From Candidatus Gottesmanbacteria bacterium (GTDB taxonomy: Bacteria; Patescibacteriota; Microgenomatia; UBA10105; UBA927), in assembly GCA_016214885.1 (NCBI GenBank), contig JACRMP010000005.1, positions 70,725-134,724 on the forward strand: DNA of 64,000 bases, written 5' to 3'. The translations under genes and the position numbers were made by a program. Below the pieces are notes generated by a model that was not told the origin of the DNA, searched no databases, and saw nothing but the letters and a program-made list of their open reading frames with translations. Positions 18,624-60,426 of this stretch are shown here, piece by piece (position 1 is the stretch's first letter; each line of letters begins with the position of its first letter).

Positions 18624-20609
18624 ATGTCCTTTGCTCACCGTTCAAGCCGGTATACGATAAAACGCATCACTGTTTTCGGATGTGTTTTACTCCTGTCTCT
18701 GACGGCTTTTTGGCGGCTTACCGGCCTTCGCATTGTTTATGTCTCTCCGCAGGGTGATGACGTAAATCCTGGCACAAAAACGCTTCCTGTCCGCAGTATT
18801 CAGCGGGGAGTTAATCTTGCCCAACGAGGCGGCCTTATTGAAATCCTTCAGGGTGACTACCGGGAAACGGTACACATACCTCATCAGAACAAAGCCCTTC
18901 CCCTTATTCTCCGCGCGGAGAATAAAAAAGGCAAACATGCGGTTCTTTTGGGCTCCGAACCGTCTTCAGATCTTTTATGGAATACTTGCACAGATGCAAC
19001 ATGCAAAGAAGTTGCGCCACAAGCGAGACGGCTTACCTATGTTACCGAAATTCCCTGGGATGAGCCACCCACAATGCTAATCTATAAAAATAAAAACGGG
19101 ACTGACCGGCTTCTCACTCTCGCAAGAAGCCCCAATCAAAAAATAAGCGATAAAAATAAATACCACGAGCATTGGTGGAATTCCGATAACCCGGGCACAT
19201 CTCTTACCGCACTCTCCGACATCAATCACCTTTCCAATGCCCCGTCATTAACTGGTGGGCGGGCGTATATTATCGATGGAGCTGACCGTTGCGGCACCTA
19301 TTTATATACCCGCGCCATCACCGGCTATAACCCACAATCTGCTTCATTTACCGTAGATATGCCCATTGGTGCTCAAACTTACGGCACCCAGGAATCAGGC
19401 CTCAGTGCCTATTCCAAATATTTCATAGAAAACGCTGCGGGATTATTGGATGTACCCGGAGAATGGTTTTATGATCAATCAGCCAAAAAACTTTATCTTT
19501 TTCCCCCGGAGCCTGTTAACCCAAGGGAGCTATCCATTGAAATTGCCAGAAGAAACACGGGAGTACTCGTCGACAGGTCAAGGGTTTCTTTACTGAATCT
19601 CACAATAAAAAATACAAATGATGCCACCTACTCCGACAAAAACACGGGGGCGGTTGTTATGAGCCCTGGAAAAAACCTCCATGCCATACGGATTAAAAAT
19701 ATAACCATACAGAATGCAGGAAACGGTATTTCGGGAATCCCGCTCACTACCGGAAGCATCCGCAACGTTTCTATTGATTCATCTTATATACAAAACGTTT
19801 CAAAATCGGCAATTTCCTTTATGGGCCTGCAGGATGTAATGGATACCATCACCGGAATAACCGTGCGGAATTCATCTATAACAGATACAGGATTTCCGCT
19901 CAACGAACCTGCAGTTGCCATTGTGCGCTCATCTGACGTGTATATACATAAAAATACCATCACCGACACTGCAAGCTATGGCATCCACGTCACGGGCTTT
20001 GAAAAAGCACCTATCGTATCCCGCAACATAACAATTGCCCGTAATTCGGTCAGCCGGACATGTCAAAATGCTTCATCATGTGCCGCGGTTAAAATCTTCG
20101 GGGGTAAATTTGTATACACCATGGTAAAAAATAACACGCTAAGCGAAAATCTTGGCTGGTCGTATTGTCATGCATTAAAAAACAACTCACAGGGGTATGC
20201 AATGGGAGTTTTTATCAGTAACGCCGGGGGAATTTCTGTTGCGCGCAATACGTCGATTAACAACAGTGGACCCGCATTTTTGGCCTATACCCGGCAGATA
20301 CCCGCAACAAATAATATTTTTTTTCGTAATACAGCAGCATATTCCTCGGTGGGCATCTCCCTTGACGGGGCAACCGGTGAACTTGATGCTGATCCCGTCG
20401 CCGACCGCACCCGCCACCGGGATACGCATCTTATAAAAAATAAGCTTCAGAATAACGGCATTGGCATAAGACTTGATCCTTACAATCAGGGCGCCCTCCG
20501 GGTAAGGCATAACTCATATGTCCAAAATGGGATAGCCCTTGTATACGGGAACAAAGAAGTGGTCGTGCCATCCGATATAAATATCGTCTTCCCTTTATGG
20601 GAAAAATGA
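18624..20609 (+). CDS. Secreted right-handed parallel beta-helix repeat protein (pectate-lyase-fold, adhesin / polysaccharide-active)
   Basis: N-terminal signal/TM helix then YVSPQGDDVNPGT, typical of beta-helix proteins. Repeated PbH1-like units: NITIQNAGNGISG, VSIDSSYIQNV, ITVRNSSITDTG, VYIHKNTITDTASYGIHV. Confidence 0.6.
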   Translation: MSFAHRSSRYTIKRITVFGCVLLLSLTAFWRLTGLRIVYVSPQGDDVNPGTKTLPVRSIQRGVNLAQRGGLIEILQGDYRETVHIPHQNKALPLILRAENKKGKHAVLLGSEPSSDLLWNTCTDATCKEVAPQARRLTYVTEIPWDEPPTMLIYKNKNGTDRLLTLARSPNQKISDKNKYHEHWWNSDNPGTSLTALSDINHLSNAPSLTGGRAYIIDGADRCGTYLYTRAITGYNPQSASFTVDMPIGAQTYGTQESGLSAYSKYFIENAAGLLDVPGEWFYDQSAKKLYLFPPEPVNPRELSIEIARRNTGVLVDRSRVSLLNLTIKNTNDATYSDKNTGAVVMSPGKNLHAIRIKNITIQNAGNGISGIPLTTGSIRNVSIDSSYIQNVSKSAISFMGLQDVMDTITGITVRNSSITDTGFPLNEPAVAIVRSSDVYIHKNTITDTASYGIHVTGFEKAPIVSRNITIARNSVSRTCQNASSCAAVKIFGGKFVYTMVKNNTLSENLGWSYCHALKNNSQGYAMGVFISNAGGISVARNTSINNSGPAFLAYTRQIPATNNIFFRNTAAYSSVGISLDGATGELDADPVADRTRHRDTHLIKNKLQNNGIGIRLDPYNQGALRVRHNSYVQNGIALVYGNKEVVVPSDINIVFPLWEK

Positions 20610-20611
20610 AG

Positions 20612-22090
20612 TTAAAAATAACCTGATTCAATAAGTGTTTTTCTATCCTGGTCATTGATCCAGGATGGCAACGGGTCTGATCGGGGTGCGATGTCAGGAA
20701 ATCCGCGCTGGAGCTCCCTATAAACACGTAATAATGCCCCCGTTATGACTTTATGCTCATCAGCGATGTTTATTTTTTCCGCTGGGTCACGCTTCAGATC
20801 ATATAGCATGACGGAAGTCTTCCCTTCCGCAATTCCACGGATAAACTTAAATCGGTCGGTTATCACAGCAACTGCACCGTCACTCACGTGCTCTGCAAGC
20901 ACGGCAATATGCCTTACCGGAGAAAACACGCTTATCCCGGAAATAGGAAACGTCGTGCGATTATCCAACACATCATGAATGGTCGGAAAAATATCCACAA
21001 GAGAAACTAGCCGTCCTGATCTCCCTGATCTGCTCTTGGGAACATATACAACAAACGGCACGTGAAGCACCTCATTATAAAGTGTGTTTCCGTGTGAATA
21101 TGAATCATGCTCAAAAAACTCATCCCCCTGGTCGCCCACAATAATAATTGTGGTGTTTTCCATAAAATTTTTCTCGGTGAGGTATGTAAAAAATTTTGTC
21201 AGCTCCTGATCAAGAATATACAGCTGGGCTGAATATAACGCATGTATATATTCCGATTTCTCCTGTTTACCTAAATGGTCAAATTGTTTCCAGTACTCTT
21301 CATTTATGATTGTGTATACATCGTTGTACTCTTCATATGTCTTGTTGCTCATTCCCTGGAATTCGGCTAATTTATCACAGGTATTTCTTGTGTCATTAGG
21401 GTGCCCGTCTCTTAATTCGGGCCGCAGGCTCATGAGCTTGGCATACGTCAGTGCACACAAATCGTCATACGTCATCCGCTTTCGGTCGGTACCCTTATAA
21501 AAACGGGAAAGTGTTTCCTCATCCGGCATATACGGTTCATGCGCCATATAGGTATGCATAAAGAAAAAAGATTTTTTCTTCAGTCTGTCAGGATCAAGCG
21601 CCAATGCATCCAATGTGGCTATCCACGAACCAGGATCATCCGCTTCATAAATTGAAGTAAATCCCCTTTCCATCCCGCGGTCGAGCGGCAAATGCGGATC
21701 TTTTGTAACCCCCAAATAATACGTTTGGTAACCCAAGCCCTTTAATGATTCTGCCAGGGTAGGTATTCCCTCAGGTAAAATACTTGAATACGGGAGATTC
21801 ATGGTGTGTGTCTCCGGGTACAGAGAGGTCATCATAGAAAAGTGACTATCGTGAGTACGCGATGCAGTCGCGTAGGCATTGGTATAGACATGTGATTTTT
21901 TCGCGAATGCACATAAGCCCGGCATGGTGTTCTTGCTATACCCAAAACAGGGAAGGCTTTTGGCGCGCACCTGATCGAGTGAAATCAGCATCACGTTACA
22001 GTCGCGACACATAGGAACTGATTGTCGAAAAGACACAGCAACCGCGGAAATTAGGAATAAAAGCACGATGGTTAGTGCATATCGCAACAT
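20612..22090 (-). CDS. Sulfatase-like hydrolase/transferase of the alkaline-phosphatase superfamily, membrane anchored, Thr nucleophile
   Basis: An N-terminal TM helix is followed by NVMLISLDQVRAKSLPCFGY...NAYATASRTHDSHFSMMTSLYP. The position equivalent to the sulfatase C-x-P-x-R motif reads T-H-D-S-H, so this is a Thr-type enzyme as in phospho-transferases such as LtaS/EptA rather than a true sulfatase. Confidence 0.6.
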   Translation of the reverse strand: MLRYALTIVLLFLISAVAVSFRQSVPMCRDCNVMLISLDQVRAKSLPCFGYSKNTMPGLCAFAKKSHVYTNAYATASRTHDSHFSMMTSLYPETHTMNLPYSSILPEGIPTLAESLKGLGYQTYYLGVTKDPHLPLDRGMERGFTSIYEADDPGSWIATLDALALDPDRLKKKSFFFMHTYMAHEPYMPDEETLSRFYKGTDRKRMTYDDLCALTYAKLMSLRPELRDGHPNDTRNTCDKLAEFQGMSNKTYEEYNDVYTIINEEYWKQFDHLGKQEKSEYIHALYSAQLYILDQELTKFFTYLTEKNFMENTTIIIVGDQGDEFFEHDSYSHGNTLYNEVLHVPFVVYVPKSRSGRSGRLVSLVDIFPTIHDVLDNRTTFPISGISVFSPVRHIAVLAEHVSDGAVAVITDRFKFIRGIAEGKTSVMLYDLKRDPAEKINIADEHKVITGALLRVYRELQRGFPDIAPRSDPLPSWINDQDRKTLIESGYF

Positions 22091-25609: not shown

Positions 25610-26074
25610 TTACCTGGTTACCGTGATAACCGCTGCGTTATCCGTTGTCGGCGCACTTACCGTTATACGGTTCTGTGCATCTCGGGATATCTGGTATCCC
25701 GTATTACCCCATGCACCTGCATTTGCGGTACAGTCAGTAATATTTGCCGTATTCAGCGACGGATCCGTCGGCAATGCCGGCAGGTAGTTCGTCACCAGCT
25801 GCCCGCACAAATTCGGGAAGTTGGTCGCATTAAACAGCGTTGCTGTTCCTGCGGTCAAACCGCTTACTTCTGCAGGCAACTGACCCTGATTTTCAGCTAC
25901 ATACTGATGAATGGCATTTAATACCTGCAGTACATCGCTGCGGCGTTTGGTGTTATTTGCCTGTCCGAATTGCCGGGCAGGATTAATGGCAATAAGCGTA
26001 ATGGCTAATAATATCGCGAGGATACCAATGACCACCAACAGCTCAATGAGCGTAAAACCTTTTTTATTTTTCAT
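25610..26074 (-). CDS. Type IV pilin / pseudopilin (prepilin-type N-terminal cleavage-methylation domain)
   Basis: MKNKKGFTLIELLVVIGILAILLAITLIAI is the class III signal, G-FTLIE. Start reassigned to that Met. GGGAGGGG RBS upstream. Confidence 0.8.
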   Translation of the reverse strand: MKNKKGFTLIELLVVIGILAILLAITLIAINPARQFGQANNTKRRSDVLQVLNAIHQYVAENQGQLPAEVSGLTAGTATLFNATNFPNLCGQLVTNYLPALPTDPSLNTANITDCTANAGAWGNTGYQISRDAQNRITVSAPTTDNAAVITVTR

Positions 26075-26166
26075 AGGCAGGTCCCCTCCCAAGGACATGA
26101 AACTTATGTACATTCAGCATAGGGGAAAATTCGTATCTTTGTCAAGAACAGTGAAGGCGGTGATCG

Positions 26167-26826
26167 TTATCCGCGGATAAAAAACCAATACATAGTAAGC
26201 GCGTAGAGCAGCGCCGCGCCACCAAATACTATCCACCCCCACGGCGTCTTCTTAGGAGCTTTCCCTTTTGGCGCGGTTACCGCCACAACCGCTCCTTGTT
26301 TCTCCGTCACAAACGGAAACGCGCTGAGGCGTAATGCGGATGATCCGTCAAAAACACGCTTAACCGTTGCGTTATCCACTTCCCCTTTCGTCAATCCCAA
26401 CTGTACCAGCGCTGACCAGGGAACAACGAGTGCAACCGGATGCTGTTGGGAAGCCAGCGAACGGGAAATTGATTCGTAATAATCCTGATTGGTGGCAATA
26501 AGGTATGACTGATCATGTGCAGTTATACATGCCGTGACAACATGGGCAAATGGGGTTGTGCTGATAAGCTTCGCTTCCGCCTCTTCTCGTTTCCCTTCTT
26601 CGAAGGGCTGTATAAAACACAATTCGTCACTCAACACCACGATAGTGGATACAACAGCATTGGGCTGAACCGGTACGAGTTTTTTGACGGAAAGCAACAG
26701 TTCTTCGTCATTCACTACTTCCATATCCGACACTGCGGATTTGGCTATACTCCCCCCGACGGGGTTTGGCCGATCACTGTAATACACATATATTGTTTCC
26801 GGTCGTACTATTGCCAGGGCAGACAT
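26167..26826 (-). CDS. Hypothetical protein with C-terminal TM anchor, inside the pilin operon
   Basis: 219 aa with the only hydrophobic helix at the extreme C-terminus (WGWIVFGGAALLYALTMYWFFI). Embedded between pilin genes. Confidence 0.35.
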   Translation of the reverse strand: MSALAIVRPETIYVYYSDRPNPVGGSIAKSAVSDMEVVNDEELLLSVKKLVPVQPNAVVSTIVVLSDELCFIQPFEEGKREEAEAKLISTTPFAHVVTACITAHDQSYLIATNQDYYESISRSLASQQHPVALVVPWSALVQLGLTKGEVDNATVKRVFDGSSALRLSAFPFVTEKQGAVVAVTAPKGKAPKKTPWGWIVFGGAALLYALTMYWFFIRG

Positions 26827-26831
26827 ATTGA

Positions 26832-27230
26832 TTAATCCTCAGGGAGTTCCCGCCAAGAATCGGTTATTAGCTCTCCACCATTATAATGCACTTTCACCTC
26901 AACCTGCTTTTGAACAGTGCCATACGATCCTGTCGACACTATCGTAATACCTGAGCTGGTGCTCACGGTTATCAGCGCGGACTGATCACTGGTTATTGTG
27001 ATTAATTCACCGGCATAAGCAGGATTACGCACCAACCGCAGCAATGCATTTTCGGCGCCGCTTTCCGCTGCTGAGTAGGCAAGCGAGCCAGCCTCAAACA
27101 TCGTTGTTGATTGGGTGTTGCCGATCAGGGCATAAATAGCCCCGGTAGTCACCAGAATACCGATCACCATGACATACAGCATGGCGATGAGCACTTGACC
27201 GGAACTATGCTGTGATCTGTTTGTAAACAT
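26832..27230 (-). CDS. PilX-like minor pilin
   Basis: The hydrophobic N-terminus SGQVLIAMLYVMVIGILVTTGAIYAL resembles the PilX N-terminal domain. Located in the pilin operon. Confidence 0.45.
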   Translation of the reverse strand: MFTNRSQHSSGQVLIAMLYVMVIGILVTTGAIYALIGNTQSTTMFEAGSLAYSAAESGAENALLRLVRNPAYAGELITITSDQSALITVSTSSGITIVSTGSYGTVQKQVEVKVHYNGGELITDSWRELPED

Positions 27231-27231
27231 A

Positions 27232-27738
27232 TTATCGCTGACTAACTGTTGTCTGCATATTGAGCGTTTGCTGACCAGCTTCTACATCAGAATTGCCCGT
27301 CAAACCCAACTGAATGGACAGTGTGTCGGCGGCATCTTCAAGCACTGCTGAATTTCCGATCCGGGTCAATAAGAACTGTGTTATCACTGACCGGTTGCTA
27401 TTCAGTTGTGTGCTGCTACCCGCGGAGGAAACCGTTATGCTCTGCCCGTCCCAGACATATTGATACGTTTGCGGCACGCCCGCTTCATTGATAACAAGCA
27501 TCATGGAATCACTTGCCACTCCCAGTGCAGGGGAAAGAATAATATCGGATCTTTTAATGTCATAATGCAGCCGCGACATGATAAACCGACCATCCTGCTG
27601 AACCCCTGATGTATTGGCTGATTCGACCCTGAGACCCACGATTGCCAGAAATACCTGGCTCATGAGCCCGATAAGCACGCTGGTTAATCCCATGTAAAGA
27701 AGTAGCTCGATAAGTGAAAATCCGTTTTGTTGTCTCAT
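27232..27738 (-). CDS. Pseudopilin (prepilin-type N-terminal domain)
   Basis: MRQQNGFSLIELLLYMGLTSVLIGL. Overlaps neighbouring genes by 4 nt (ATGA). Confidence 0.7.
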   Translation of the reverse strand: MRQQNGFSLIELLLYMGLTSVLIGLMSQVFLAIVGLRVESANTSGVQQDGRFIMSRLHYDIKRSDIILSPALGVASDSMMLVINEAGVPQTYQYVWDGQSITVSSAGSSTQLNSNRSVITQFLLTRIGNSAVLEDAADTLSIQLGLTGNSDVEAGQQTLNMQTTVSQR

Positions 27739-29741
27739 GGTGATAAGGCAATGCTGACATCATTAAGAATTGGCGTCAGTGTGGCATCCCCGGTGGTCAA
27801 TTGCGCCCGATAACGGAAACACCGCGCGGGATTCTCATAACCTGTCCCGTCACCGGAAAATGGCAAAGCCCCAGATATACTCACGCCGTCTGAAGAAACA
27901 TACGATGTACCGGCTGTCCCGTCTGGTCCGACATATATATAGGAGGCCCCAGCACAACTGCCGCCAACCGCGTCCGCAGCCGCAAACTGCAAAGTCACGC
28001 TCGACTGTGCTGAGGGCACGGAAATCGACGCCTCAATGCGGTTAAACGCTACCTCGGAGCTTCCGGTCGCGATAAGTGTCGCATCAAATATTTGCGACTC
28101 AAAAACGCCCGTCAGAAAATAGTCTCTGCCGTTTGCCCCCGGTCCTCCTTCAATAATTTTAAGCTCACTCGATGCATCACCGGTGATGATGTATGAATAT
28201 GCCCGACCGCTTGACGCAAGCACCGTATCAATACCGTTTACCCCCGAATTTATCTCTATCCCGCCGCACCGCGGCAGCGGGTTTGCTGTTTCACTAGTTA
28301 TATCGACTACCTGATATTCCTCGCCACCCAAACCCACAATAATGGCCCGCGGCCCGGATACCACAACCAAACCTTTTGGATTCATGCTGCCCGTATCATA
28401 AGAACCCAGCACTTGTTTATAACCGGCAGCACCCGATTCAGTGTTCACGATAAAAAATTCACGCTGTGCACTTGACTGCTCAGTAGCGACATACGCCCTC
28501 GTACCGCTGGCGTTTATGTATATAGCTTTCCCACCGCTCGCAGACAAACCTATTTGGTCGACAATACGCAGGTCGGAAGGATTACTCACATCAACAATCA
28601 CCACCTGTGCATTCGTGGCGCTCGTTGCCACAAATGCCCTGCCTCCTGAAACTACAATGCTTTTTCCTGTCCCGGGAAGGGTTATCCCGTCAGCATCAAG
28701 CACGGAACGCGACCCTGTTTTTGAGGAAAGATCAAACGAATACATTTTCGTCCCACCGACCATATACCCAACTGATCCTGCGGTTACCACTCCCTCAGCA
28801 TTCCCGTTTCCTGGAGCATTAAAGTACCCGGCTTCGGCAAACTTACCGGATCCGTCAACGGCACCCAATGCAATAATCTCAACCTCTTTCGTGTTGGTAT
28901 CGGTCGCAAGATAGGCATATTCGGCTTCGGTAAATACATCATTCGTTTTATATCCGTCAAAAGTCCCGGATGTCGTAGCAATAGGATTGGTCGGAAATTC
29001 GGGATCAGTAATCAGGACGTTTGCATACGATACTCCGCTTGCATTATCCCCGGTTCCTGCGGCAATTGCCCCTTGAATTGCGCTGATTGCGTTGGCTACC
29101 CCGCTTTTCGGTAAATCTACCGCTGTAATGGTAAGCGACGGCTGGCACCAATCCCCGTAGCCTCCCGTTGAACCCAATACCACTTCTCCGCCGGCTAAAT
29201 TTATTACCCTCGTGTGCTGCGTCGCATCTCCGTTAAGAAAATTCTGTTCGGTCGTATCTACATGGATAATATTATTGTGACGGGTAAGTATGACCACTGA
29301 CGAAATTGACGTCGGAAGCGGGGTTGTCCATGATACGCGGATTGTTGCACGCCGTGTCGATGGATCAGTAATCCCGCCTGAGCTTACGATATTTCCTGAA
29401 ATATCCCGTTGCACAGGGGAAAATTCAATAACACGGGTAAACCGGTCAATTGTTTCGGTTCCATTGGCAAGAGTCCACCGCGCATTAACCACTGCAGGAT
29501 GGTAGACCGTGTTATTTGCATACAAGGCAAACTGGCTCCACCCCGTCTCGCGGATACTCCGTAGTGCCTCCTGCGCCTCGACAAGCAGTGTTGTTGCACG
29601 GGTTCGCTCAATCTGCTGCGCTTTCCCCTCCCGTGATACAAAGAACATGGTAAACAGCGCAGGAAAAAAAATAAGGGCAAATCCCATGGCGAGCAGCAGT
29701 TCAATGATCGTTTGTCCTCTTTGCAGCTTCATAGTATTCAC
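27735..29741 (-). CDS. Giant pilin-like protein: prepilin-type N-terminus plus LVIVD-repeat beta-propeller (putative pilus tip adhesin)
   Basis: N-terminus LQRGQTIIELLLAMGFALIFF. The C-terminal region has repeated AQVVIVDVSNPSDLRIV and LVVVSGPRAIIVGLGGEEYQVVDITSE units, typical of LVIVD beta-propeller blades. Confidence 0.6.
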   Translation of the reverse strand: MNTMKLQRGQTIIELLLAMGFALIFFPALFTMFFVSREGKAQQIERTRATTLLVEAQEALRSIRETGWSQFALYANNTVYHPAVVNARWTLANGTETIDRFTRVIEFSPVQRDISGNIVSSGGITDPSTRRATIRVSWTTPLPTSISSVVILTRHNNIIHVDTTEQNFLNGDATQHTRVINLAGGEVVLGSTGGYGDWCQPSLTITAVDLPKSGVANAISAIQGAIAAGTGDNASGVSYANVLITDPEFPTNPIATTSGTFDGYKTNDVFTEAEYAYLATDTNTKEVEIIALGAVDGSGKFAEAGYFNAPGNGNAEGVVTAGSVGYMVGGTKMYSFDLSSKTGSRSVLDADGITLPGTGKSIVVSGGRAFVATSATNAQVVIVDVSNPSDLRIVDQIGLSASGGKAIYINASGTRAYVATEQSSAQREFFIVNTESGAAGYKQVLGSYDTGSMNPKGLVVVSGPRAIIVGLGGEEYQVVDITSETANPLPRCGGIEINSGVNGIDTVLASSGRAYSYIITGDASSELKIIEGGPGANGRDYFLTGVFESQIFDATLIATGSSEVAFNRIEASISVPSAQSSVTLQFAAADAVGGSCAGASYIYVGPDGTAGTSYVSSDGVSISGALPFSGDGTGYENPARCFRYRAQLTTGDATLTPILNDVSIALSP

Positions 29742-30250
29742 TCGCGGACTACCGATAACGCACCCGCTTCGTTTATCCGTATGGTCACCCTACTGCCCGT
29801 TTCCGTATCGGACAACTCAACATAATCTGCTCCTGTGATAAATCCTCTCATTTTTCCGCTGCTCCTGGCATACGTAATCGCCTGATCTGGCACGGCAATA
29901 ACAGTAAATCGCATGGTAGGATCAAGCAGCACCTCCTGATTCTGACTGTTTCCCATGTCATACACAGCCCCCGGATACAAAATATACCGGTCGGTTTCAA
30001 ACCGAACGGAATAATCCACTACCGATCCTGACGGAGAAACCAACCCGTTTATCGCCCGCGCCTGTTGCGTGTTAAGGTCGCGCATGACGCTGCTGGATAC
30101 CTGATCAAGAGTGGCACTTCTTATCCCGCCGAACAGCGACTGTGTAGACAACATAAACATTATGGCCATAATGGTTCCCACGATAATCACCTCAACCAGG
30201 GTAAATCCATCGGTATAACGACGTCTTGCATGGCTATCTGTTCGCCGCAT
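29738..30250 (-). CDS. Pseudopilin (GspH/FimT-like, prepilin-type N-terminal domain)
   Basis: RRYTDGFTLVEVIIVGTIMAIMFML. Confidence 0.7.
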   Translation of the reverse strand: MRRTDSHARRRYTDGFTLVEVIIVGTIMAIMFMLSTQSLFGGIRSATLDQVSSSVMRDLNTQQARAINGLVSPSGSVVDYSVRFETDRYILYPGAVYDMGNSQNQEVLLDPTMRFTVIAVPDQAITYARSSGKMRGFITGADYVELSDTETGSRVTIRINEAGALSVVRE

Positions 30251-30258
30251 ATCTATAT

Positions 30259-32481
30259 CTATAGTACAGGACTGTGAATAATTGCCAATCCGTCATACGA
30301 ATGTTTTTTCTGCATAGCTTCCCGTTTTTGCGCAGTATATACAGGCAGTGAAAAACTGAAAATCGCCCCCATCCCCTTACCGTCTGAATGCCCTTCTATA
30401 ACGCCTCCATGGAGATCAATAATGGATTTGCATATAAACAGTCCGAGACCGGTACTCTGGGTAGCTGCGGAGGTGGTCTGGGAAGAGGTCTCCAGCGTGC
30501 CAAATTTTGTAAACAATTTATCCCGCATTACAGGGTCAAATCCCTTCCCTGTATCGGTAACAGAAATGGTGATGTACTCGTTATCAGACCTGACGGCTAT
30601 AGTGATACTCCCATTCCACGGAGTAAACTTAATGGCATTTCCAATAAGATTGATAAGCACTTCTTTGATTTTATCCGTATCTGCAATGACATCAGGGACG
30701 GAATCCTGCGGCATCCTGACATTAAGATGTAGACCCTGCTCCTCAATCCTGGGACTTACTTCGGCGACAACATCCCGCAGTATGGTGCCAATATCCGCCC
30801 GGGAAAACTGGACCGCAAGCCGTCCGGATTCTATACGTGAAATATTTAACATGTCATTTACCAGCCGTATAAGACGGTCTGCCGAGCTGAATGCGCGGTC
30901 CAGATAGTACTTCTGCTTCTCAGTGACTTCCCCTCCCTTACCGGAAAGTGCCATCCATAAGTATGAACGGATGCTCGTTAACGGCGTTCGCAATTCATGT
31001 GAAGCAAGTGACACGAATTCATCTTTGAGCTTATCCAGTTGTCGCAGTTTTTCATTTGCCCCCCGTAGATCCTGAGTCGCCCGGGAGACCTCATCTTCAA
31101 GCGTCATATTAAACCGTCGTATTTCTTCGTAGGAAAGTGAATTCTCTATCGCGACCCCGACTTCAGGGGATATAATTTCCAGAACATGCACATCTTCATC
31201 GGAATATCTCTCACCTGAAAGTTTTTCTCCGGTACACAAAAGTCCTATGACTTTATCCGATGTCTCCAGGGGCAGCAACACCGACGCATCCAAAGATTCA
31301 AACACCATCTGAATAAGCGGATCCTGCTCATCATCGCGGTGGTGAACTCCGCTTGTTGCTGAGGTATGCACAGCAACAGACTCATGCAGCTCCGGGGTAA
31401 GATCATACCCTTCGGAGATAATGGTGAATATCCGTTGCCCGTGGATTAATACAATGCAGGACTTTGTTATCCGCAGCTCCTTATTTAGCTGTTGCAAAAA
31501 CTGGTGAGTAAGATCTTCCAATCTCAAAGACCGGGCCATTATTTTTGCCAGCCTATACAGTACCTGGGCTGTATCATATTTATTTTTGAAAAAAACTGCG
31601 TCAGTCGTTTGTTCAATCACCCGCTTAACACTCGGAAACGTCAGTAACATTATTAGCGCTGCAATGGTAGAAAGAATAATAAAACGAGGATCGATATACG
31701 GTGATACCAGGAGTGACGCCATCGATGAAAACACCAACGCATAGATAAGACCGAAAAGAGAGATAAGTACCGCATAGGATACCGCCCGGGCAATAACAAG
31801 CCGTATATCCAAAAATTTATGCCGGATAATTGCATACGCAGTGGCAGCCACAAACGGCAGTGTATAAAGCGGACTGAATGAAACAAACGATGACTCCTGG
31901 AACAGAACAACCAGCACAAAATTAAAAAATATAATAAGCGTGAACATGACCACAACACCAAGGCCAATTGCCTGAAGCTGGGACCGTAGTATTCCTTTTG
32001 AAAATCTAAGACGCCGGATAAGCGTCCACACGCCGGCAAGTACGGAACCCACTGCAACCAGAACAAACAATGGCATCGCCGGTCCCGGCGTAGGAGAAGG
32101 CGTCCCATCCACAAAAATTATCGACGGAAAAAGAAAAGGACTCACACAAAGTCCCATGGTAATAATTCCCAAAACCATTAGCGCGCCAAGGCGTGATGCG
32201 GGCATACTGATACGTGTTGACGGCAGGGTGTATATCAGTAAAAAAAACAATATGGCCTGCGGTACGGCAAGCGCCATAACTATTCTTGTCCAATACAATA
32301 CAGTGAGCAAATCCGTATACTGAAGCGTCAGGTAGTTAGCCGCCGACCAGAGACTGATATCAAGGGTCAGCAAAAAGAAGAGAAGCGGGGTAGCGCTCCG
32401 CCGGTTTCTAAGATACACAAAGAGTCCTAATAGGATATTGGCGGCAATTCCGGTGATAAGTATGGGCAGGTTTATATTCAT
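30259..32481 (-). CDS. Sensor histidine kinase with multi-TM N-terminal sensor, GAF-like segment, HisKA and HATPase_c
   Basis: About 8 TM helices, then ASHELRTPLTSIRSY (H-box), NLIGNAIKFT (N-box) and GTGLGLFICKSIIDLHGG (G-boxes). Only 8 nt separate it from the downstream pseudopilin gene. Confidence 0.8.
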   Translation of the reverse strand: MNINLPILITGIAANILLGLFVYLRNRRSATPLLFFLLTLDISLWSAANYLTLQYTDLLTVLYWTRIVMALAVPQAILFFLLIYTLPSTRISMPASRLGALMVLGIITMGLCVSPFLFPSIIFVDGTPSPTPGPAMPLFVLVAVGSVLAGVWTLIRRLRFSKGILRSQLQAIGLGVVVMFTLIIFFNFVLVVLFQESSFVSFSPLYTLPFVAATAYAIIRHKFLDIRLVIARAVSYAVLISLFGLIYALVFSSMASLLVSPYIDPRFIILSTIAALIMLLTFPSVKRVIEQTTDAVFFKNKYDTAQVLYRLAKIMARSLRLEDLTHQFLQQLNKELRITKSCIVLIHGQRIFTIISEGYDLTPELHESVAVHTSATSGVHHRDDEQDPLIQMVFESLDASVLLPLETSDKVIGLLCTGEKLSGERYSDEDVHVLEIISPEVGVAIENSLSYEEIRRFNMTLEDEVSRATQDLRGANEKLRQLDKLKDEFVSLASHELRTPLTSIRSYLWMALSGKGGEVTEKQKYYLDRAFSSADRLIRLVNDMLNISRIESGRLAVQFSRADIGTILRDVVAEVSPRIEEQGLHLNVRMPQDSVPDVIADTDKIKEVLINLIGNAIKFTPWNGSITIAVRSDNEYITISVTDTGKGFDPVMRDKLFTKFGTLETSSQTTSAATQSTGLGLFICKSIIDLHGGVIEGHSDGKGMGAIFSFSLPVYTAQKREAMQKKHSYDGLAIIHSPVL

Positions 32482-32489
32482 GACGGTCG

Positions 32490-33650
32490 TTACAGTCCTA
32501 GTTTACGGATAAATTCTTCACGCACGGCACTGTGCCGGGAATACTCGCTCGCTATGACAGCAACAGGAGAAAATATCGCTTCGGGGGATATTACAACTTT
32601 TCCCTGAACAACAGGCTTCCCTAACACTATCAGCCGCACCACATAACTTACAACAGATCCCGCCATGGAAGCAGCGTTTCCTAATTGCGGCCAGGTATAT
32701 AATGTTTTTCCCAATTCCAAAAGCGACGTCATCATGCGGGTAGCAATATTTTCAGGCCGCACCCACCTGCTTATTATCCGGGCGGCGACCGGTCGTGGCG
32801 TGTCGGGGCGTATTGCAAGAAGCTCCGCTTCAGGAATATCCCCGTGCATAAGCGGCCGCTTATGATCAAGATCAAACCGCTCTATATCTACTACGACTCC
32901 GTCACCGTTGTCTGCGGCCATAACTACTGGAATTCCGTGCTTCCGGGCGAGTGTCCGCAGACGGATTTTAAGATACAGATCATCCATCTCATCCACCACT
33001 ATATCAAGAGGCTCGGGTTCCAGAAGAAATTCTTTTATGTTTTTTTCCGTAAGACCGGAATCAAAAACCGTAAGATCAGTAAAAGGATTCACCAATAAAA
33101 CTTCGCGTGCGGCGACAGTTGTTTTTGATACCCCCAACAAATCAAAACCTGCCCGGATACGGTTCATATTTGAACCCGACAGCACATCGGCGTCCGCTAT
33201 GCGCAGATATTTCGCGCCTCCGGTATGAACAATATTAGATACAACCGCGTTCCCGACACTGAGCCCGGCAACACCCACACGGGCACGGTAATACCGGCGC
33301 TGCTCGGACAGCGTGATAAGGTTCCTGTTCCTTGCAGTGCGGAGCTCCGTATGAAGCGCTTCCGGCAAAAAATGGATAAGCCGCTTACCCCAGGGATACC
33401 AGGCCCAAACACCGAACATGTCTTTGGATTTTCCCCGGTAAATACTTTTGATAAATTTTTCGAGTAGCACAGCTGATACCCCTTCGCGGATCACACTGGG
33501 ATTGCGTATTTTGTATAACTCTTCAAGCTGGGAATACAGCTCATCTACCAACTGCACGTCCGCGCGGCGTTTTAATGCTGCTAATCTCACGGCATCCCGG
33601 GACTTGCTTGGATTAAAAAGCTCACAATGGTTATCGCGGGAGTTACTCAT
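32490..33650 (-). CDS. ThiF/MoeB/E1-like adenylyltransferase family protein with ~100-aa N-terminal extension
   Basis: RARVGVAGLSVGNAVVSNIVHTGGAKYLRIADADVLSGSNMNRI is the nucleotide-binding GxGxxG loop with downstream D...N.R. The N-terminal extension is reminiscent of the peptide-binding E1-like enzymes such as MccB, or TOMM-associated types. Confidence 0.5.
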   Translation of the reverse strand: MSNSRDNHCELFNPSKSRDAVRLAALKRRADVQLVDELYSQLEELYKIRNPSVIREGVSAVLLEKFIKSIYRGKSKDMFGVWAWYPWGKRLIHFLPEALHTELRTARNRNLITLSEQRRYYRARVGVAGLSVGNAVVSNIVHTGGAKYLRIADADVLSGSNMNRIRAGFDLLGVSKTTVAAREVLLVNPFTDLTVFDSGLTEKNIKEFLLEPEPLDIVVDEMDDLYLKIRLRTLARKHGIPVVMAADNGDGVVVDIERFDLDHKRPLMHGDIPEAELLAIRPDTPRPVAARIISRWVRPENIATRMMTSLLELGKTLYTWPQLGNAASMAGSVVSYVVRLIVLGKPVVQGKVVISPEAIFSPVAVIASEYSRHSAVREEFIRKLGL

Positions 33651-33683
33651 AAATCAGCCTCAATTTCATTGTAACAACTCCCC

Positions 33684-35201
33684 TTATGTTTTCCTAACCC
33701 ATTTGTGCTTGCCTGAGGAAGAGAAATGCGGGGGACTCCCATATGGCCAGCAAAACACATTTGGCGTCATACGGCGCTCCCCCATGCTTTTTAAATTATT
33801 GGCAAACTCTGAATTGTGTTCTGTTAGCTCGCTGATAATTTGCGCTTGTATCTCACGCATTAGCAATGCTGAGCTTTTACTGTTTTTCTGCAGCTCCACA
33901 TGCACATTCCATGATTGGTTCATTTGCTGATCATAATATGCCTCTGCAGTATGCTTACCGGTTAATACTTTCCTGAAACGGACGGCTTCCAGCGCCCGCC
34001 GTATTTCCTGCGGATATATATTTGCTCCGAATATTTTTACGGTAAAATCCCGGCGTTCAAACAAATATACAAACGGAATATTCCAGACCGTCGCTGCAAT
34101 GCCCGCCTTCTTAATTTCCGCATCCAGATTAACGCCGTATGCAGCAAAAACTTTCTGCATCTCTTTGAAGGTAAGAATTCCTCCCGTATCCATAAGATCG
34201 TACCGCACCAACGGAATACCGCTTCGTGCCGTACATAAAAGATTTCCGGAATCTGCCTCAAAATAAAACAGTTCAGGAATATATTGGGCAAGCGTAGGCT
34301 GATTATGCTTTTGTCCGAATAGAGCTTCATTTAATACCGGGTTTTTGACCGCCAGCCTGCGGACAAGAATCGCAAGCGGCGTTTCATGCGCCATTGTCCC
34401 CAAATCGACACTGCCATAATGATTTAATGTATCAGTATATTCATGGAGGAGGCCTGCATGTTTTATGACGTAAGTACGGAACGCTTCAGAAAACCCTTCC
34501 GCGGAAAAAATAAATTTTACATGGCTTTTTTTCCACTCCATCCCCCTGCGCTCACCTTCATCTATAAGATCTTTTATCATCGGGGGGTACCCTCCGATAA
34601 TGATCTGATCATAAAGAGGAGCAAATTTCTGCACTGCTTTAAGTATTTCGTCGCTGGAGGTTCCCGGCGTAATAATGCTTAATGGGTACTTGCCGCGCTC
34701 TGCAACTATACGGATAGCTGCATAGCTAAATACTCCTCCGATCCACACCCCCATACCCCAACCGACAATAAACAGCGTTGATTTCGTATGAATTGAAAAA
34801 TTTGACCGCAAATACATTTCAGCAACGGCGGCATACTGCAAATCCTGCTCCTGGGATCGCGGAAAATAAAACGGGTCACCTGTTGATCCGCTGGTTGCAG
34901 ACACGATACGCGGCATACCGGTTAAGCTTCCCATCCAACAAAGATCGGTGAGCGAATATTTTCTTAAATACGAGTCTTTGCCGATAATTGGCGCGGACAA
35001 AAAATCCCGCATCCCGGGCTTTTTCGGCAACCGTATATGAAAATCTGCAAGATGTTTTTTATATGCGGGAACGTTCCTTGCCATGTCTGCAAGCAGAGCG
35101 CAGGCCATACGCTCCCCCCTCTTTATCCAATACCCCTCAGATTTCGTACCCAACAGTGCCGCCCACCGTACCGGATCGTTTATCAGCGCAATCGTTTTCA
35201 T
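33684..35201 (-). CDS. Adenylate-forming enzyme of the PaaK / CapK / coenzyme-F390-synthetase-like family (ANL superfamily)
   Basis: ARNVPAYKKHLADFHI...LPIIGKDSYLR then SATSGSTGDPFYFPRS, the (S/T)SG(S/T)TG.P AMP-binding loop, then WGMGVWIGG. Confidence 0.5.
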   Translation of the reverse strand: MKTIALINDPVRWAALLGTKSEGYWIKRGERMACALLADMARNVPAYKKHLADFHIRLPKKPGMRDFLSAPIIGKDSYLRKYSLTDLCWMGSLTGMPRIVSATSGSTGDPFYFPRSQEQDLQYAAVAEMYLRSNFSIHTKSTLFIVGWGMGVWIGGVFSYAAIRIVAERGKYPLSIITPGTSSDEILKAVQKFAPLYDQIIIGGYPPMIKDLIDEGERRGMEWKKSHVKFIFSAEGFSEAFRTYVIKHAGLLHEYTDTLNHYGSVDLGTMAHETPLAILVRRLAVKNPVLNEALFGQKHNQPTLAQYIPELFYFEADSGNLLCTARSGIPLVRYDLMDTGGILTFKEMQKVFAAYGVNLDAEIKKAGIAATVWNIPFVYLFERRDFTVKIFGANIYPQEIRRALEAVRFRKVLTGKHTAEAYYDQQMNQSWNVHVELQKNSKSSALLMREIQAQIISELTEHNSEFANNLKSMGERRMTPNVFCWPYGSPPHFSSSGKHKWVRKT

Positions 35202-35270: not shown

Positions 35271-35675
35271 ATGGCAAAACGCATACTCATCGTCGATGAC
35301 GATTCATTTATCCGGGAGCTCTATGAAGAAGTGCTCAGAGATGCCGGATTTGATATCACCACCGCAGAAAACGGTGAATCAGGACTTGCACACCTTTTGG
35401 AGGGAGGATTTGATGCAGTGCTCCTGGATGTGATGATGCCGAAATTAGACGGGTTAGGAGTACTCACCAAGCTCAAAGAGTCCCATCCTAAAAAACCAAA
35501 CGGACCCATTATTCTGCTTACCAACTTAGATCATGACCCGATTCTTGATAAAGCGATTGAACTTGGAGCAGTGTCCCACGTGCTTAAAGCAGACATCCTG
35601 CCGCCGGCTCTCGTCACCTTGGTTAACAAAACGCTAAGCCACTCCACTAATGGAACTCCCCAACCTGGCCAATAA
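35271..35675 (+). CDS. Single-domain (CheY-like) response regulator receiver protein
   Basis: KRILIVDDDSFIRELYEEVL...DAVLLDVMMPKLDG...ILLTNL has the conserved phospho-acceptor Asp and the Thr and Lys positions, with no output domain. Start set at MAKRIL. Convergent with pilC; the 3' ends overlap. Confidence 0.8.
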   Translation: MAKRILIVDDDSFIRELYEEVLRDAGFDITTAENGESGLAHLLEGGFDAVLLDVMMPKLDGLGVLTKLKESHPKKPNGPIILLTNLDHDPILDKAIELGAVSHVLKADILPPALVTLVNKTLSHSTNGTPQPGQ

Positions 35676-36699
35676 GATTATAAATAGGCGCAATGATGGC
35701 CATCATCATACCACCGACAACCACACCTACTAATACAAGAATAACAGGCTCAAGCAGCGTCATAAGATATTGAAGCGTGGTGGTGACCTGATAATCAAAA
35801 TACTCTGATAAATCCTCCATGGATTTATCCAAAGAGCCGCTCCGCTCCCCGACTTCTATGATTTTTATCATCAGTGACGGAATGGATTTTTGCCCCCGCA
35901 AGCCATCCGTTAACCGCTTGCCGCCGCCGACATATTCGCGTGCTTTTGCTATAGCCTCACGTATTTCCCGTTTCATAGCAACAGCTTGTGTTAATTCCAG
36001 CGCGCTATAGAGAGGAATGGCAGAAACCAGCAGCAGATACATGCTCCGCGAAAACCGTGTTAAATCTATCTGCCGGGCGATAGAAGACACATATGGCAGA
36101 TTAAGCAATATATTCACAACAAATGCGCGCTTCTGCTTGAAAAGGAAAATAATAAGAAGAATGAATCCGAAAACAACAAGCAGTGTCGGGACGGTGTAAT
36201 TTAATACCAAATTCGATAATCCTATAAGTATCCTGGTCGGCAGAGGCAGATCTACCCTAAGCCTAAGGAATACTTCCGAAATCTTCGGAATGACAAAGGT
36301 AACTAAAAGCAGCAACACCCCAAAAAATACGACGAGTATAACCGCCGGATACGTTAAAGCGGAACGGATCTTGTCACCGAATTCCATATCTTTTTTGATT
36401 GTATTTTTTACATCCTTAAGCACCACGTCTATCGTTCCTGATTCCTCCGAAGCCTTAATGATGGCGACCGTAACACTGTCAAACACTTTGGGATATTTTG
36501 ATAATGCGGTATGCAGCGGCTTTCCCTGGGTAATATCCGCTTCGATTCCTGTAAGCACTATTTTCAGATTTCCTACAGAATCCTCCAAAAGCGAGTTAAC
36601 CGCCTCTGCAAGGGTAAGCCCTGCATTTACCATCGTAGATAAATTACTGAGGAGCCCCAATTTTTCAGAATTCTGCAGTGTTATATTTTCTGATTTCAT
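35647..36699 (-). CDS. pilC: Type II secretion system F / PilC-family inner-membrane platform protein
   Basis: GspF-like repeat motifs, LSSLVNAGLTLAEAVNSLL and EVGERSGSLDKSMEDLSEYF, with three TM helices. Overlaps pilB by 4 nt. Confidence 0.8.
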   Translation of the reverse strand: MKSENITLQNSEKLGLLSNLSTMVNAGLTLAEAVNSLLEDSVGNLKIVLTGIEADITQGKPLHTALSKYPKVFDSVTVAIIKASEESGTIDVVLKDVKNTIKKDMEFGDKIRSALTYPAVILVVFFGVLLLLVTFVIPKISEVFLRLRVDLPLPTRILIGLSNLVLNYTVPTLLVVFGFILLIIFLFKQKRAFVVNILLNLPYVSSIARQIDLTRFSRSMYLLLVSAIPLYSALELTQAVAMKREIREAIAKAREYVGGGKRLTDGLRGQKSIPSLMIKIIEVGERSGSLDKSMEDLSEYFDYQVTTTLQYLMTLLEPVILVLVGVVVGGMMMAIIAPIYNLIGQVGEFH

Positions 36700-45940: not shown

Positions 45941-46120
45941 ATAGCCATCATTAGCTCGTTAATACCCGTATCGTACACACTGGGACACCCGGCGGGCAAT
46001 GCGTAAAATACATAGCCCGAGAAAATTGCAAAGCGGCAAACCTGCATTGACTTGCCCACACTCCATACCCATACTAAGAACAGGCACACACAGCACCTGG
46101 TTGTTTCTTTGTGCCGATGT

Positions 46121-60252: not shown

Positions 60253-60341
60253 ATAATTTTAGTATATCGTGATACACCTGAATTGCCAAGCACACATACA
60301 AAAAAATCTGCACTAGGCAGATAAACATCATCGTGTATTTG

Positions 60342-60426
60342 CGGAGAGGGTGGGATTTGAACCCACGGTATCTTGCGATACGGAAGTTTAGTAAACTTCT
60401 GCACTAGGCCACTATGCGACCTCTCC
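60342..60426 (-). tRNA. Type II tRNA (Ser-like body) with unusual anticodon loop TTACTAA, apparent anticodon ACU
   Basis: Acceptor GGAGAGG/CCTCTCC with discriminator G, long variable arm, T-arm GGGTTCAAATCCC. The anticodon arm is a perfect palindrome, GAAGTTTA-C-TAAACTTC. No GCT, TGA, CGA or GGA anticodon is available in the loop. Confidence 0.55.

Follow-up and report, generated by a model that had tools for sequence, protein, structure and literature searches.

The DNA analysed here, a stretch of 64,000 nucleotides from Candidatus Gottesmanbacteria that we call the window, encodes a 668-aa minor type IV pilin in which the pilin module is followed by a predicted seven-bladed LVIVD-type beta-propeller and a C-terminal beta-sandwich. 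We consider it probable that this protein is one subunit of a cap made of four minor pilins, and that it shows its propeller at the pilus tip, likely as a ligand-binding head. A first-pass annotation of the same gene had reported a prepilin-type N-terminus fused to an LVIVD propeller and had proposed a tip adhesin. The observation itself is confirmed, and the strings that were quoted for it are all found in the translation: RGQTIIELLLAMG is residues 8-20, VVIVD is residues 380-384 and IIVGLG is residues 467-472. The size of the fused domain was overestimated. It was put at about 600 aa; there are about 510 aa beyond the pilin module, divided among a linker, the propeller and the C-terminal domain. 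Type IV pili are near-universal in Patescibacteria (CPR), and they are leading candidates for the means by which these ultrasmall bacteria find and hold their hosts. To our knowledge, Microgenomates have no cultured member and the genetic evidence on Patescibacteria pili comes from Saccharibacteria only.

The protein has more than 873 homologues, its family forms 806 clusters at 50% identity (E<=1e-30), and relatives were found in 179 species-level genomes. This is a genuine gene and no accidental reading frame. Many of the relatives come from records titled 'uncultured Gammaproteobacteria'. We take these to be mislabelled binned genomes of Patescibacteria, because the same operon is present in those loci and all named relatives are Microgenomates. 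The translation of the ORF, on the reverse strand, begins M(NTM)KLQRG/QTIIELLLAMG, where the slash marks the predicted cut. NCBI has an identical protein from Candidatus Gottesmanbacteria (HZB58_01210), started at the ATG three codons later and therefore 665 aa long. The gene overlaps both of its neighbours by 4 nt, its start with the stop of the upstream gene (GTGA) and its stop with the start of the downstream gene (ATGA). The mature product would be about 68.5 kDa with a pI of 4.6.

The suggestion that the N-terminus is a class III signal is well supported. The leader is short and basic, a hydrophobic helix follows it, and there are four pilin-like neighbour genes downstream of PilB and PilC. 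Of 83 orthologues, 81 have Gly at -1, 82 have Glu at +5 and 46 have Lys or Arg at -2. Gln at +1, where the usual pilin residue is Phe, is kept in 76 of the 83. Pro27 is invariant in a 48-sequence alignment. According to hydropathy and AlphaFold2, about 25 hydrophobic residues (10-34) run directly into a 55-residue helix. Since this helix is unbroken and the Gly and Glu5 are near-invariant, a conventional Sec signal was rejected. The first-pass annotation had pointed to a possible cleavage site after Gly and before TIIE. Cleavage is predicted after Gly9, but the residue that follows is Gln10, so that the mature protein would begin with QTIIE and not with TIIE.

Pfam N_methyl (PF07963, IPR012902) gives 12.5 bits in the 668-aa protein against a cut-off of 21.2; at E<=0.01 it matches 13 of 48 relatives, and TIGR02532 matches 6 of them. 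In a model of the first 205 aa by themselves, the pilin head has a pLDDT above 90. A Foldseek comparison of this model with solved pilins returned a best E of 0.046, with the pilin matches at E 0.19-0.54, none of them significant. Among all the larger ORFs of the window we found no prepilin peptidase (A24), PilT, PilM or secretin.

Behind the pilin module the fold is predicted with high confidence to be a propeller, as had been anticipated, and the model fits seven blades. AlphaFold2 models the full protein with a pLDDT of 86.7 and a pTM of 0.75, and resolves four parts: the pilin module, which is made of a helix and a small head of beta-sheet and reaches to about residue 156, then the linker, the propeller and the beta-sandwich. 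Confidence in the propeller is mostly 90-97 (pLDDT per 10-residue block, residues ~270-520). The model has 27 strands in residues 216-532, which suits seven blades of four strands each, provided that one closing strand is supplied from outside this range. Foldseek, ranked by target TM-score, puts seven-bladed propellers of the WD40 type first: RACK1 (TMt 0.76), a designer protein with 7 blades (0.74), then G-beta and WDR12 (both about 0.7). Blade length is 39-51 aa, an alignment of blades 2-7 follows the pattern SG-RAYVAT...VVIVDVS, and the blade profiles cross-match weakly and in register.

The first-pass annotation spoke of repeated LVIVD units. One such unit passes in Pfam (PF08309, 24.9 bits against a gathering score of 20.2, E = 1.2e-5), and Pfam sees this one only; the other six come from the AlphaFold2 model and the weak cross-matches between blades. 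In the relatives LVIVD is found in 42 of 48, with a best E of 1e-16 (Pfam), and the NCBIfam model 'choice-of-anchor B' matches 20 of the 48. In the 668-aa protein itself no NCBIfam model matched at E<=1. RCC1 was matched neither in this protein nor in the 48 relatives (Pfam). A sequence search of the PDB returned nothing with the single protein, and with the family profile only a chance-level match to ROS1 (E 0.7).

The linker contains two invariant motifs, W198-C199-x-P201 and D209-L-P-K. Its confidence is low if it is modelled without the propeller and reaches 71-88 in the full model. In variants of 1020 aa, the duplication comprises the propeller and the segment before it from about residue 185. 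The C-terminal beta-sandwich matched no known family in Pfam or NCBIfam. It is the least conserved part of the protein (mean column conservation 0.52), with Cys596 and Cys641 invariant. Blades 4-5 vary more, as this domain does, and conservation is highest in the linker and blades 1, 2, 6 and 7. The propeller and C-terminal domain are acidic, and no blade has a net positive charge. Coordinates of all these parts and of the neighbouring genes are collected in Table 1.

Table 1. Parts of the propeller-bearing pilin and genes around it (positions in the window; residues are those of the 668-aa protein; slashes mark predicted cleavage).
Feature	Positions	Strand	Basis or remark
Whole gene, modular minor pilin, 668 aa	27735..29741	-	GTG start; alternative ATG start at 29732
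Leader peptide MNTMKLQRG, residues 1-9, ending in predicted cleavage Gly	29715..29741	-	orthologue conservation
Pilin alpha-1 helix, residues 10-66 (QTIIE, hydrophobic alpha-1N)	29544..29714	-	conservation, hydropathy, AlphaFold2 helix 12-66
Pilin head, antiparallel beta-sheet, residues 67-156	29274..29543	-	AlphaFold2 strands 79-153
Linker and propeller-entry segment, residues 157-213	29103..29273	-	12/57 positions >=95% conserved
Predicted seven-bladed LVIVD-type beta-propeller, residues 214-537	28131..29102	-	AlphaFold2, Foldseek, blade alignment, LVIVD in relatives
Sole Pfam-recognised LVIVD repeat (blade 4, residues 357-392, with VVIVD)	28566..28673	-	PF08309
Predicted C-terminal beta-sandwich, residues 538-668	27738..28130	-	AlphaFold2 strands 544-667
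PilB-type assembly ATPase	36696-38372	-	T2SSE 4.6e-126, with MshEN
PilC-type platform protein	35647-36699	-	T2SSF 1.7e-43
7TM-GAF-HisKA-HATPase sensor kinase	30259..32481	-	ends 8 nt before the minor-pilin genes
Upstream minor pilin, 170 aa (G/FTLVE), GspH/ComGD-like	29738..30250	-	GspH 4.7e-5, ComGD 1.1e-4, both below cut-off
Downstream minor pilin, 168 aa (G/FSLIE), GspJ/PilW/ComGF-like	27232..27738	-	weak models and synteny
Minor pilin-like, 132 aa (G/QVLIA, without Glu+5), PilX/GspK/ComGG-like	26832..27230	-	PilX_N 6/21; synteny
219-aa protein, C-terminal transmembrane segment, no family match	26167..26826	-	variable operon slot
Major pilin candidate (KKG/FTLIELLVVIG)	25610..26113	-	N_methyl 38.9 bits; GspG 1.6e-10; IV_pilin_GFxxxE 33.4 against cut-off 16.3

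The gene is a fixed member of an operon whose genes are closely coupled and which was found again in 82 loci fetched from Microgenomates/Patescibacteria. In essentially all of them the order is PilB, PilC, the 170-aa pilin, the propeller pilin, the 168-aa pilin, the 132-aa pilin and then the major pilin. Every locus examined has the propeller-pilin gene in this core operon, one per operon, and in most related loci PilB and PilC are directly upstream of the minor pilins. The 170-aa pilin is syntenic in 81 of the 82 loci. Orthologues of the 132-aa pilin have T, V, M, I or A at +5. By comparison, the 219-aa protein is recognisable in only about one third of loci, with a median identity of 23%. 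For the major pilin, translation probably starts at a Met 13 codons downstream of the start listed for its ORF. A kinase has the equivalent place in the fetched loci L001-L003, L008, L013, L015 and L051.

All assignments of these pilins to H, I, J and K types rest on gene order and on matches below the curated cut-offs. For the family of the 168-aa pilin such matches are to PpdC (14 of 20), ComGF (10 of 20) and GspJ (3 of 20), and ComGE is matched as well. For the relatives of the 668-aa protein they are to ComGE (19 of 48, best E 1.6e-5) and to GspI, XpsI and PilV (one or two each). The conserved order of the operon places the 668-aa protein in the PilV/GspI/ComGE slot of a four-pilin tip complex. 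Pilins of this kind likewise lie between H-like and J-like genes and keep Glu+5, and a K-type pilin without Glu5 likewise comes last. They are small, GspI and ComGE being among the smallest, in contrast to the 668 aa found here. Some JGI names ('PulG') would make this a system of type II secretion pseudopilins. We rejected this, as no secretin was found among the larger ORFs of the window and a GspG-like major pilin ends what is a pilus-type operon. The lineage is also not known to have an outer membrane, and this too was weighed against type II secretion.

The following course of events can be suggested. A prepilin peptidase would cut the leader of 6-9 residues after Gly9, and the mature acidic protein of about 68 kDa would be built into the filament by way of the hydrophobic alpha-1 helix. 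Together the four minor pilins (170, 668, 168 and 132 aa) would prime and cap the filament. The propeller and the beta-sandwich would then be displayed at the distal end, because the tip is the only place with room for an extra 510 residues. There they would most likely serve as a ligand-binding head directed toward a surface or a host cell. If correct, the protein would be functionally equivalent to a PilY1-like propeller that a core minor pilin carries in cis. We know of no ligand for any LVIVD propeller, and we have counted this against the adhesin. A tip adhesin for host attachment is plausible, given the place of the protein among four minor pilins, a complex general to the tips of type 4 filaments (PMC12153270), and the precedents offered by PMC11623550 and PMC8179133.

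A close precedent is PilX2 of Nanosynbacter lyticus TM7x (Saccharibacteria), also a minor type IV pilin that ends in a propeller of seven blades; cells in which it is deleted still make filaments but bind their host only about half as well (PMC11623550). PilX2 differs in that its propeller is of the RCC1 type and that it is without a predicted prepilin-peptidase signal (PMC11623550). The Gottesmanbacteria protein has an LVIVD-type propeller, the canonical Gly-1 and Glu+5, and an additional C-terminal domain.

Modular type IV pilins, in which a functional module is grafted C-terminally on an N-terminal pilin module, are predicted to be tip-exposed (Raynaud 2021, PMC8179133). Our protein is built in the same way: its pilin module is joined through a linker to an LVIVD module that also occurs outside pilins. 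The characterised modular pilins of S. sanguinis, PilB with a vWA module and PilC with a lectin module, are unrelated to LVIVD (PMC8179133). In Dataset S1 of that paper, summing over rows, at least 30 proteins have IPR012902 (prepilin motif) followed by one or more IPR013211 (LVIVD), and a Candidatus Falkowbacteria pilin is described with 12 LVIVD motifs. There these entries are counted and not analysed. Pilin-propeller fusions are thus already known as a kind, and this LVIVD family had not been studied. Compared with the entries of Dataset S1, it is defined by a fixed operon slot, a seven-blade fold, an extra beta-sandwich and high conservation.

The first-pass annotation had suggested a comparison with PilY1/PilC adhesins and with LVIVD proteins. 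The LVIVD assignment stands. The PilY1 signature (PF05567/IPR008707) was absent from the 668-aa protein at E<=1 and from the 48 relatives at E<=0.01, and the 50 best matches in Foldseek do not include PilY1. What would be shared with PilY1/PilC of Pseudomonas, Neisseria and Myxococcus is the arrangement, a seven-bladed C-terminal propeller at the tip together with four core minor pilins. PilY1, however, is no pilin and docks on the minor pilins non-covalently, whereas here the propeller would be carried in cis by a pilin module. LVIVD proteins that are displayed on surfaces use other anchors or none. They are likewise found in bacteria and archaea with an LVIVD repeat and a predicted propeller ('choice-of-anchor B', PF08309, TIGR04312; PMC2447325).

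Conservation is where another explanation has to be considered. The median identity of the propeller pilin is 46.7%, compared with 29-38% for the flanking minor pilins and 52% for PilC, so that it comes near PilC and PilB in conservation. This is at odds with the poor conservation reported for Patescibacteria pilins (PMC11623550), since the propeller pilin is well conserved across Microgenomates. Conservation this unusually high would be less expected of a host-specific adhesin than of a protein with a core or assembly role or with a conserved ligand. The protein might accordingly be a factor of pilus assembly or dynamics and no adhesin, one that primes polymerisation or controls extension and retraction, with the propeller in contact with the machinery or with other tip pilins. 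Its invariable place in the core operon would agree with this, as would the fact that the best conserved parts, the linker with blades 1, 2, 6 and 7, adjoin the pilin module, and the sensor kinase directly upstream in several lineages. In Myxococcus and Pseudomonas, PilY1 acts in this way together with the minor pilins; for PilY1, priming is a role cited in the literature (PMC7541494, by way of PMC11623550). Yet such a role is compatible with adhesion, PilY1 doing both. Filaments of Saccharibacteria do not need their propeller pilin PilX2 to form (PMC11623550), and the greater variability of blades 4-5 and the C-terminal domain is what might be expected of an exposed binding surface. On balance, we regard a pure assembly factor as unlikely.

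The two roles might also be joined in one protein. A more speculative suggestion, which we hold only tentatively and think rather doubtful, is that the Microgenomates propeller, far from being an optional adhesin, belongs to the pilus-priming cap itself, a core pilin of the PilV/GspI/ComGE type having absorbed a PilY1-like propeller in cis. If so, a single conserved protein would both nucleate the filament and recognise a ligand common to the whole group. Blades 7, 1 and 2 with the linker would form a docking or sensing face, and blades 4-5 with the C-terminal domain would tune specificity. Under these assumptions the propeller pilin might also couple to the adjacent sensor kinase in surface sensing.

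A different possibility is that the pilin-type helix is an alternative anchor, and that we are dealing with a surface protein held on an uncleaved pilin-like signal anchor which never enters a filament. The atypical Gln at +1 and the N_methyl score below threshold are in keeping with this. So are the matches of the relatives to 'choice-of-anchor B', a family defined by co-occurrence with alternative anchoring signals. However, a plain anchor needs no near-invariant Gly-1 and Glu+5, the protein has retained a full pilin head domain, and its gene keeps a fixed, translationally coupled place among three other minor pilins. We find this explanation very improbable compared with a subunit of the minor-pilin cap. 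Hardly credible is a DNA receptor in a competence-type (Com-like) pilus, an enlarged ComGE-like subunit capturing DNA for a genome-reduced cell: the operon does resemble comGA-GG in order and in weak matches to ComGD, ComGE, ComGF and ComGG, and the minor pilins at the tip of monoderm Com pili do bind DNA (PMC12153270), but in known DNA-binding pilins the surface used is electropositive, unlike these blades and this acidic mature protein, and DNA binding in Com pili maps to ComGD/ComGF and not to ComGE (PMC12153270).

The general picture is unchanged, as modular pilins and propeller-bearing minor pilins were already known. What the family offers is a concrete conserved target with a confident structural model. 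A 'propeller at the tip' in the style of PilY1, obtained by fusion to a core minor pilin in a lineage not known to have an outer membrane, would bear on how the tips of type 4 filaments have diversified. The soluble part (residues ~185-668) could serve as a ligand probe, as a bait for hosts in environmental samples or as an antigen for labelling pili. The 668-aa protein also has two putative disulfides.

The propeller pilin, the product of the minus-strand ORF 27735..29741, is an uncharacterised modular minor pilin with a propeller head, a kind of protein that is itself already known. It is 100% identical to the 665-aa 'hypothetical protein HZB58_01210' of Candidatus Gottesmanbacteria at NCBI, where the start is placed at an ATG three codons downstream of the GTG used here. 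This identity makes the window part of a Microgenomates/Patescibacteria (CPR) genome. The GTG overlaps the upstream stop (GTGA) and the stop overlaps the downstream ATG (ATGA); such overlaps usually indicate that the genes of an operon are translationally coupled. The family has more than 873 homologues and 806 clusters (50% identity, E<=1e-30), mostly full-length. Among species-level genomes, 179 have a relative; their labels are Gottesman-, Levy-, Roizman-, Woese-, Amesbacteria or 'Patescibacteria'. We found no paper in the literature on this specific family. Many of the species-representative (binned) genomes behind loci L003-L075 are titled 'uncultured Gammaproteobacteria bacterium' or 'Pseudomonadales bacterium', yet carry a Patescibacteria-type pilus operon. 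These titles look wrong and do not serve to place the family in Proteobacteria.

The first-pass annotation described a prepilin-type N-terminus fused to an LVIVD propeller. The strings it quoted are all present (RGQTIIELLLAMG at residues 8-20, VVIVD at 380-384, IIVGLG at 467-472); its observation is confirmed and its structural reading supported. The N-terminus, M(NTM)KLQRG/QTIIELLLAMGFALIFFPALFTMFFV, runs from a short basic leader through Gly to Glu at +5 and about 25 hydrophobic residues. Among 83 aligned orthologues, 81 retain Gly-1, 76 Gln+1 and 82 Glu+5; Pro27 is invariant among 48 sequences. AlphaFold2 predicts a single helix at residues 12-66 followed by a beta-sheet at 79-153, with pLDDT >90 in the pilin region in a separate model of residues 1-205. 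This class III pattern and the pilin 'lollipop' topology bear out the prepilin-type N-terminus, as opposed to a Sec signal. Cleavage had been expected before TIIE (Thr11); the predicted site sits one residue earlier, before Gln10. Some points weaken the prepilin reading. Position +1 is Gln, not Phe. The Pfam N_methyl score, 12.5 bits, is below the cut-off of 21.2, although 13 of 48 relatives match the model at E<=0.01. A Foldseek comparison of the pilin head with solved pilins gave no significant match.

The propeller was modelled with AlphaFold2 at full length on 48 family sequences (mean pLDDT 86.7, pTM 0.75). After a linker (157-213), 27 strands are predicted between residues 216 and 532, consistent with seven blades of four strands each, provided that one closing strand is contributed from beyond that interval; a separate beta-sandwich follows at 544-667. 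Foldseek returned 830 PDB matches at E<=0.001. The best target TM-scores belong to seven-bladed WD40-type propellers (RACK1, 0.76; a designed seven-bladed protein, 0.74; G-beta and WDR12, ~0.7; beta-TrCP, 0.62). Pfam LVIVD (PF08309) matches blade 4 with 24.9 bits against a gathering score of 20.2, and 42 of 48 relatives match it (best E 1e-16). Blades 2-7 share the pattern ..SG.RAYVAT....VVIVDVS.., and single-blade profiles match other blades in register. Together these matches identify a propeller of the LVIVD type, so the predicted fold and the family assignment both uphold what had been proposed. Weak matches to NCBIfam 'choice-of-anchor B' occur in 20 of 48 relatives. No Pfam RCC1 signature was found in the protein or its 48 relatives, and no Pfam or NCBIfam family matches the C-terminal domain.

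Four Cys residues (199, 492, 596 and 641) are invariant in the 48-sequence alignment. In relatives of about 1020 aa (P0038-P0051; P0047, for example, has 1027) two tandem copies of the entire propeller unit precede the C-terminal domain. Where they align, the second copy and the propeller pilin share 33% identity, and both copies have a WCxP...CGG Cys pair of their own. Read together with the invariant Cys, this would give every propeller unit a disulfide and the C-terminal domain another.

Pilus operon and other features of the window, with median identity to the window's proteins across 75 species whose propeller pilin is <55% identical to the window protein
Feature	Coordinates	Strand	Median identity	Remarks
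PilB-type ATPase	36696-38372	(-)	58%	
PilC-type platform protein	35647-36699	(-)	52%	
505-aa protein (no Pfam match) and 386-aa ThiF-family (E1-like) protein	32490-35201	(-)		between PilC and kinase
7TM-GAF-HisKA-HATPase sensor histidine kinase, 740 aa	30259-32481	(-)		between PilC and pilins
170-aa pilin	29738-30250	(-)	29%	G/FTLVE
Propeller pilin	27735..29741	(-)	46.7%	real; 668 aa
168-aa pilin	27232-27738	(-)	32%	G/FSLIE
132-aa pilin-like protein	26832-27230	(-)	38%	G/QVLIA
219-aa protein	26167-26826	(-)		C-terminal transmembrane segment; no family
Major pilin	25610-26113	(-)		KKG/FTLIE; N_methyl 38.9 bits
Two sulfatase-family proteins, one arylsulfotransferase-type propeller, one 661-aa right-handed beta-helix protein	20612-22090; 46052-47731; 47774-49075; 18624-20609	(-); (+); (+); (+)		
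tRNA-Ser, anticodon ACT	60341-60426	(-)		A at position 34; loop TTACTAA (ARAGORN)

For synteny, the window's proteins served as queries against the ORFs of 80 loci from species-representative genomes and two from metagenomes. Essentially all 82 loci keep the order PilB-PilC-170-propeller pilin-168-132-(variable)-major pilin. The sole difference of the window's lineage, including L003, L008 and L013, is the three-gene insertion (505-aa, ThiF-like, kinase), of which the 505-aa and ThiF-family part occurs only in these close relatives. A same-strand kinase lies directly upstream of the minor pilins in several separate lineages: in the window (8 nt gap), in L001 (6092-7510, 4-nt overlap), and at the same place in L015 (3615-5039) and L051 (3958-5352); most relatives have PilC there. 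The kinase may tie the pilus to regulation or to surface sensing. What lies between the 132-aa gene and the major pilin varies among loci; in the Woesebacteria loci L001 and L002 this slot holds 356-aa and 211-aa proteins and a 667-aa Peptidase_M23 protein.

All typing matches of the propeller pilin and its neighbours are below curated cut-offs. The 170-aa protein matches GspH and ComGD weakly; of 20 members of the 168-aa family, 14 match the model for PpdC, 10 that for ComGF and 3 that for GspJ; 19 of 48 propeller pilins match ComGE. Subunits of the GspK/PilX/ComGG type characteristically lack Glu5. Glu at +5 is absent in every member of the 132-aa family, and 6 of 21 match PilX_N. Gene order, motif pattern and these sub-cut-off matches agree on a putative set H - I(+propeller) - J - K. 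[quoted passage not shown]

The gene, its prepilin signature, the operon, the predicted fold and the LVIVD membership are shown; the mode of action is inferred. A prepilin peptidase encoded elsewhere (none was found in the 64-kb window) would cut after Gly9, and the propeller pilin would join the 170-, 168- and 132-aa pilins in a cap that would prime major-pilin polymerisation by PilB and PilC. The shaft has no room for ~510 extra residues, so the propeller and beta-sandwich would be held at the distal tip, where they would bind a ligand. An adhesin role, as first suggested, is a plausible prediction. The propeller pilin might instead be mainly an assembly or dynamics factor, which is compatible with adhesion. 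It might also be a surface protein on an uncleaved pilin-like anchor, but both its fixed position in the operon and the invariance of Gly and Glu5 speak against this. A competence receptor that captures DNA is disfavoured by the acidic surface: the mature protein has a pI of 4.6 and no blade with net positive charge, whereas known pilins capture DNA through electropositive patches (PMC12153270).

The high conservation (see table) argues for a core component, with any ligand common across Microgenomates. Conservation is highest in the linker and blades 1, 2, 6 and 7 and lowest in blades 4-5 and the C-terminal domain; the variability of these last parts makes them the likeliest seats of specificity.

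Precedents exist. Raynaud et al. 2021 defined 'modular pilins' (1,219 proteins, 264 architectures), predicted to be tip-exposed and many of them in candidate phyla (PMC8179133). Entries in their Dataset S1 include at least 30 proteins with IPR012902 followed by one to thirteen units of IPR013211 (PMC8179133), which is the LVIVD repeat; the architecture is thus already catalogued, though not analysed. In Saccharibacteria the minor pilin PilX2 carries a seven-bladed RCC1 propeller; filaments form without PilX2, but efficient host binding requires it (PMC11623550). The propeller pilin differs from both precedents in its propeller type, canonical prepilin signature, extra C-terminal domain, fixed I-type slot and high conservation. 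Comparison with PilY1, also proposed in the first pass, revealed no PilY1-type signature (Pfam) in the protein or its 48 relatives; being itself a pilin, it is not a PilY1 family member. The two probably have a similar place of action, and the propeller pilin would in effect be the PilY1 arrangement, a propeller on a four-pilin cap, reached by fusion. It will not surprise specialists, but it offers a useful way into the biology of CPR pili and into how hosts are found.

Elsewhere in the window, the two sulfatases, the arylsulfotransferase-type propeller and the beta-helix protein look like more surface or extracellular chemistry of the sulfated-glycan type than one would expect of a small CPR genome. 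The tRNA-Ser(ACT) gene adjoins tRNA-Ser(TGA) in a cluster of five tRNA-Ser and two tRNA-Arg genes at ~59-61.3 kb; A34 is unusual in bacterial tRNA-Ser. GC skew is negative in all 2-kb bins (1-64000), cumulative skew falls monotonically and the minus strand carries most long ORFs, which places the window within a single replichore with strong gene-strand bias.
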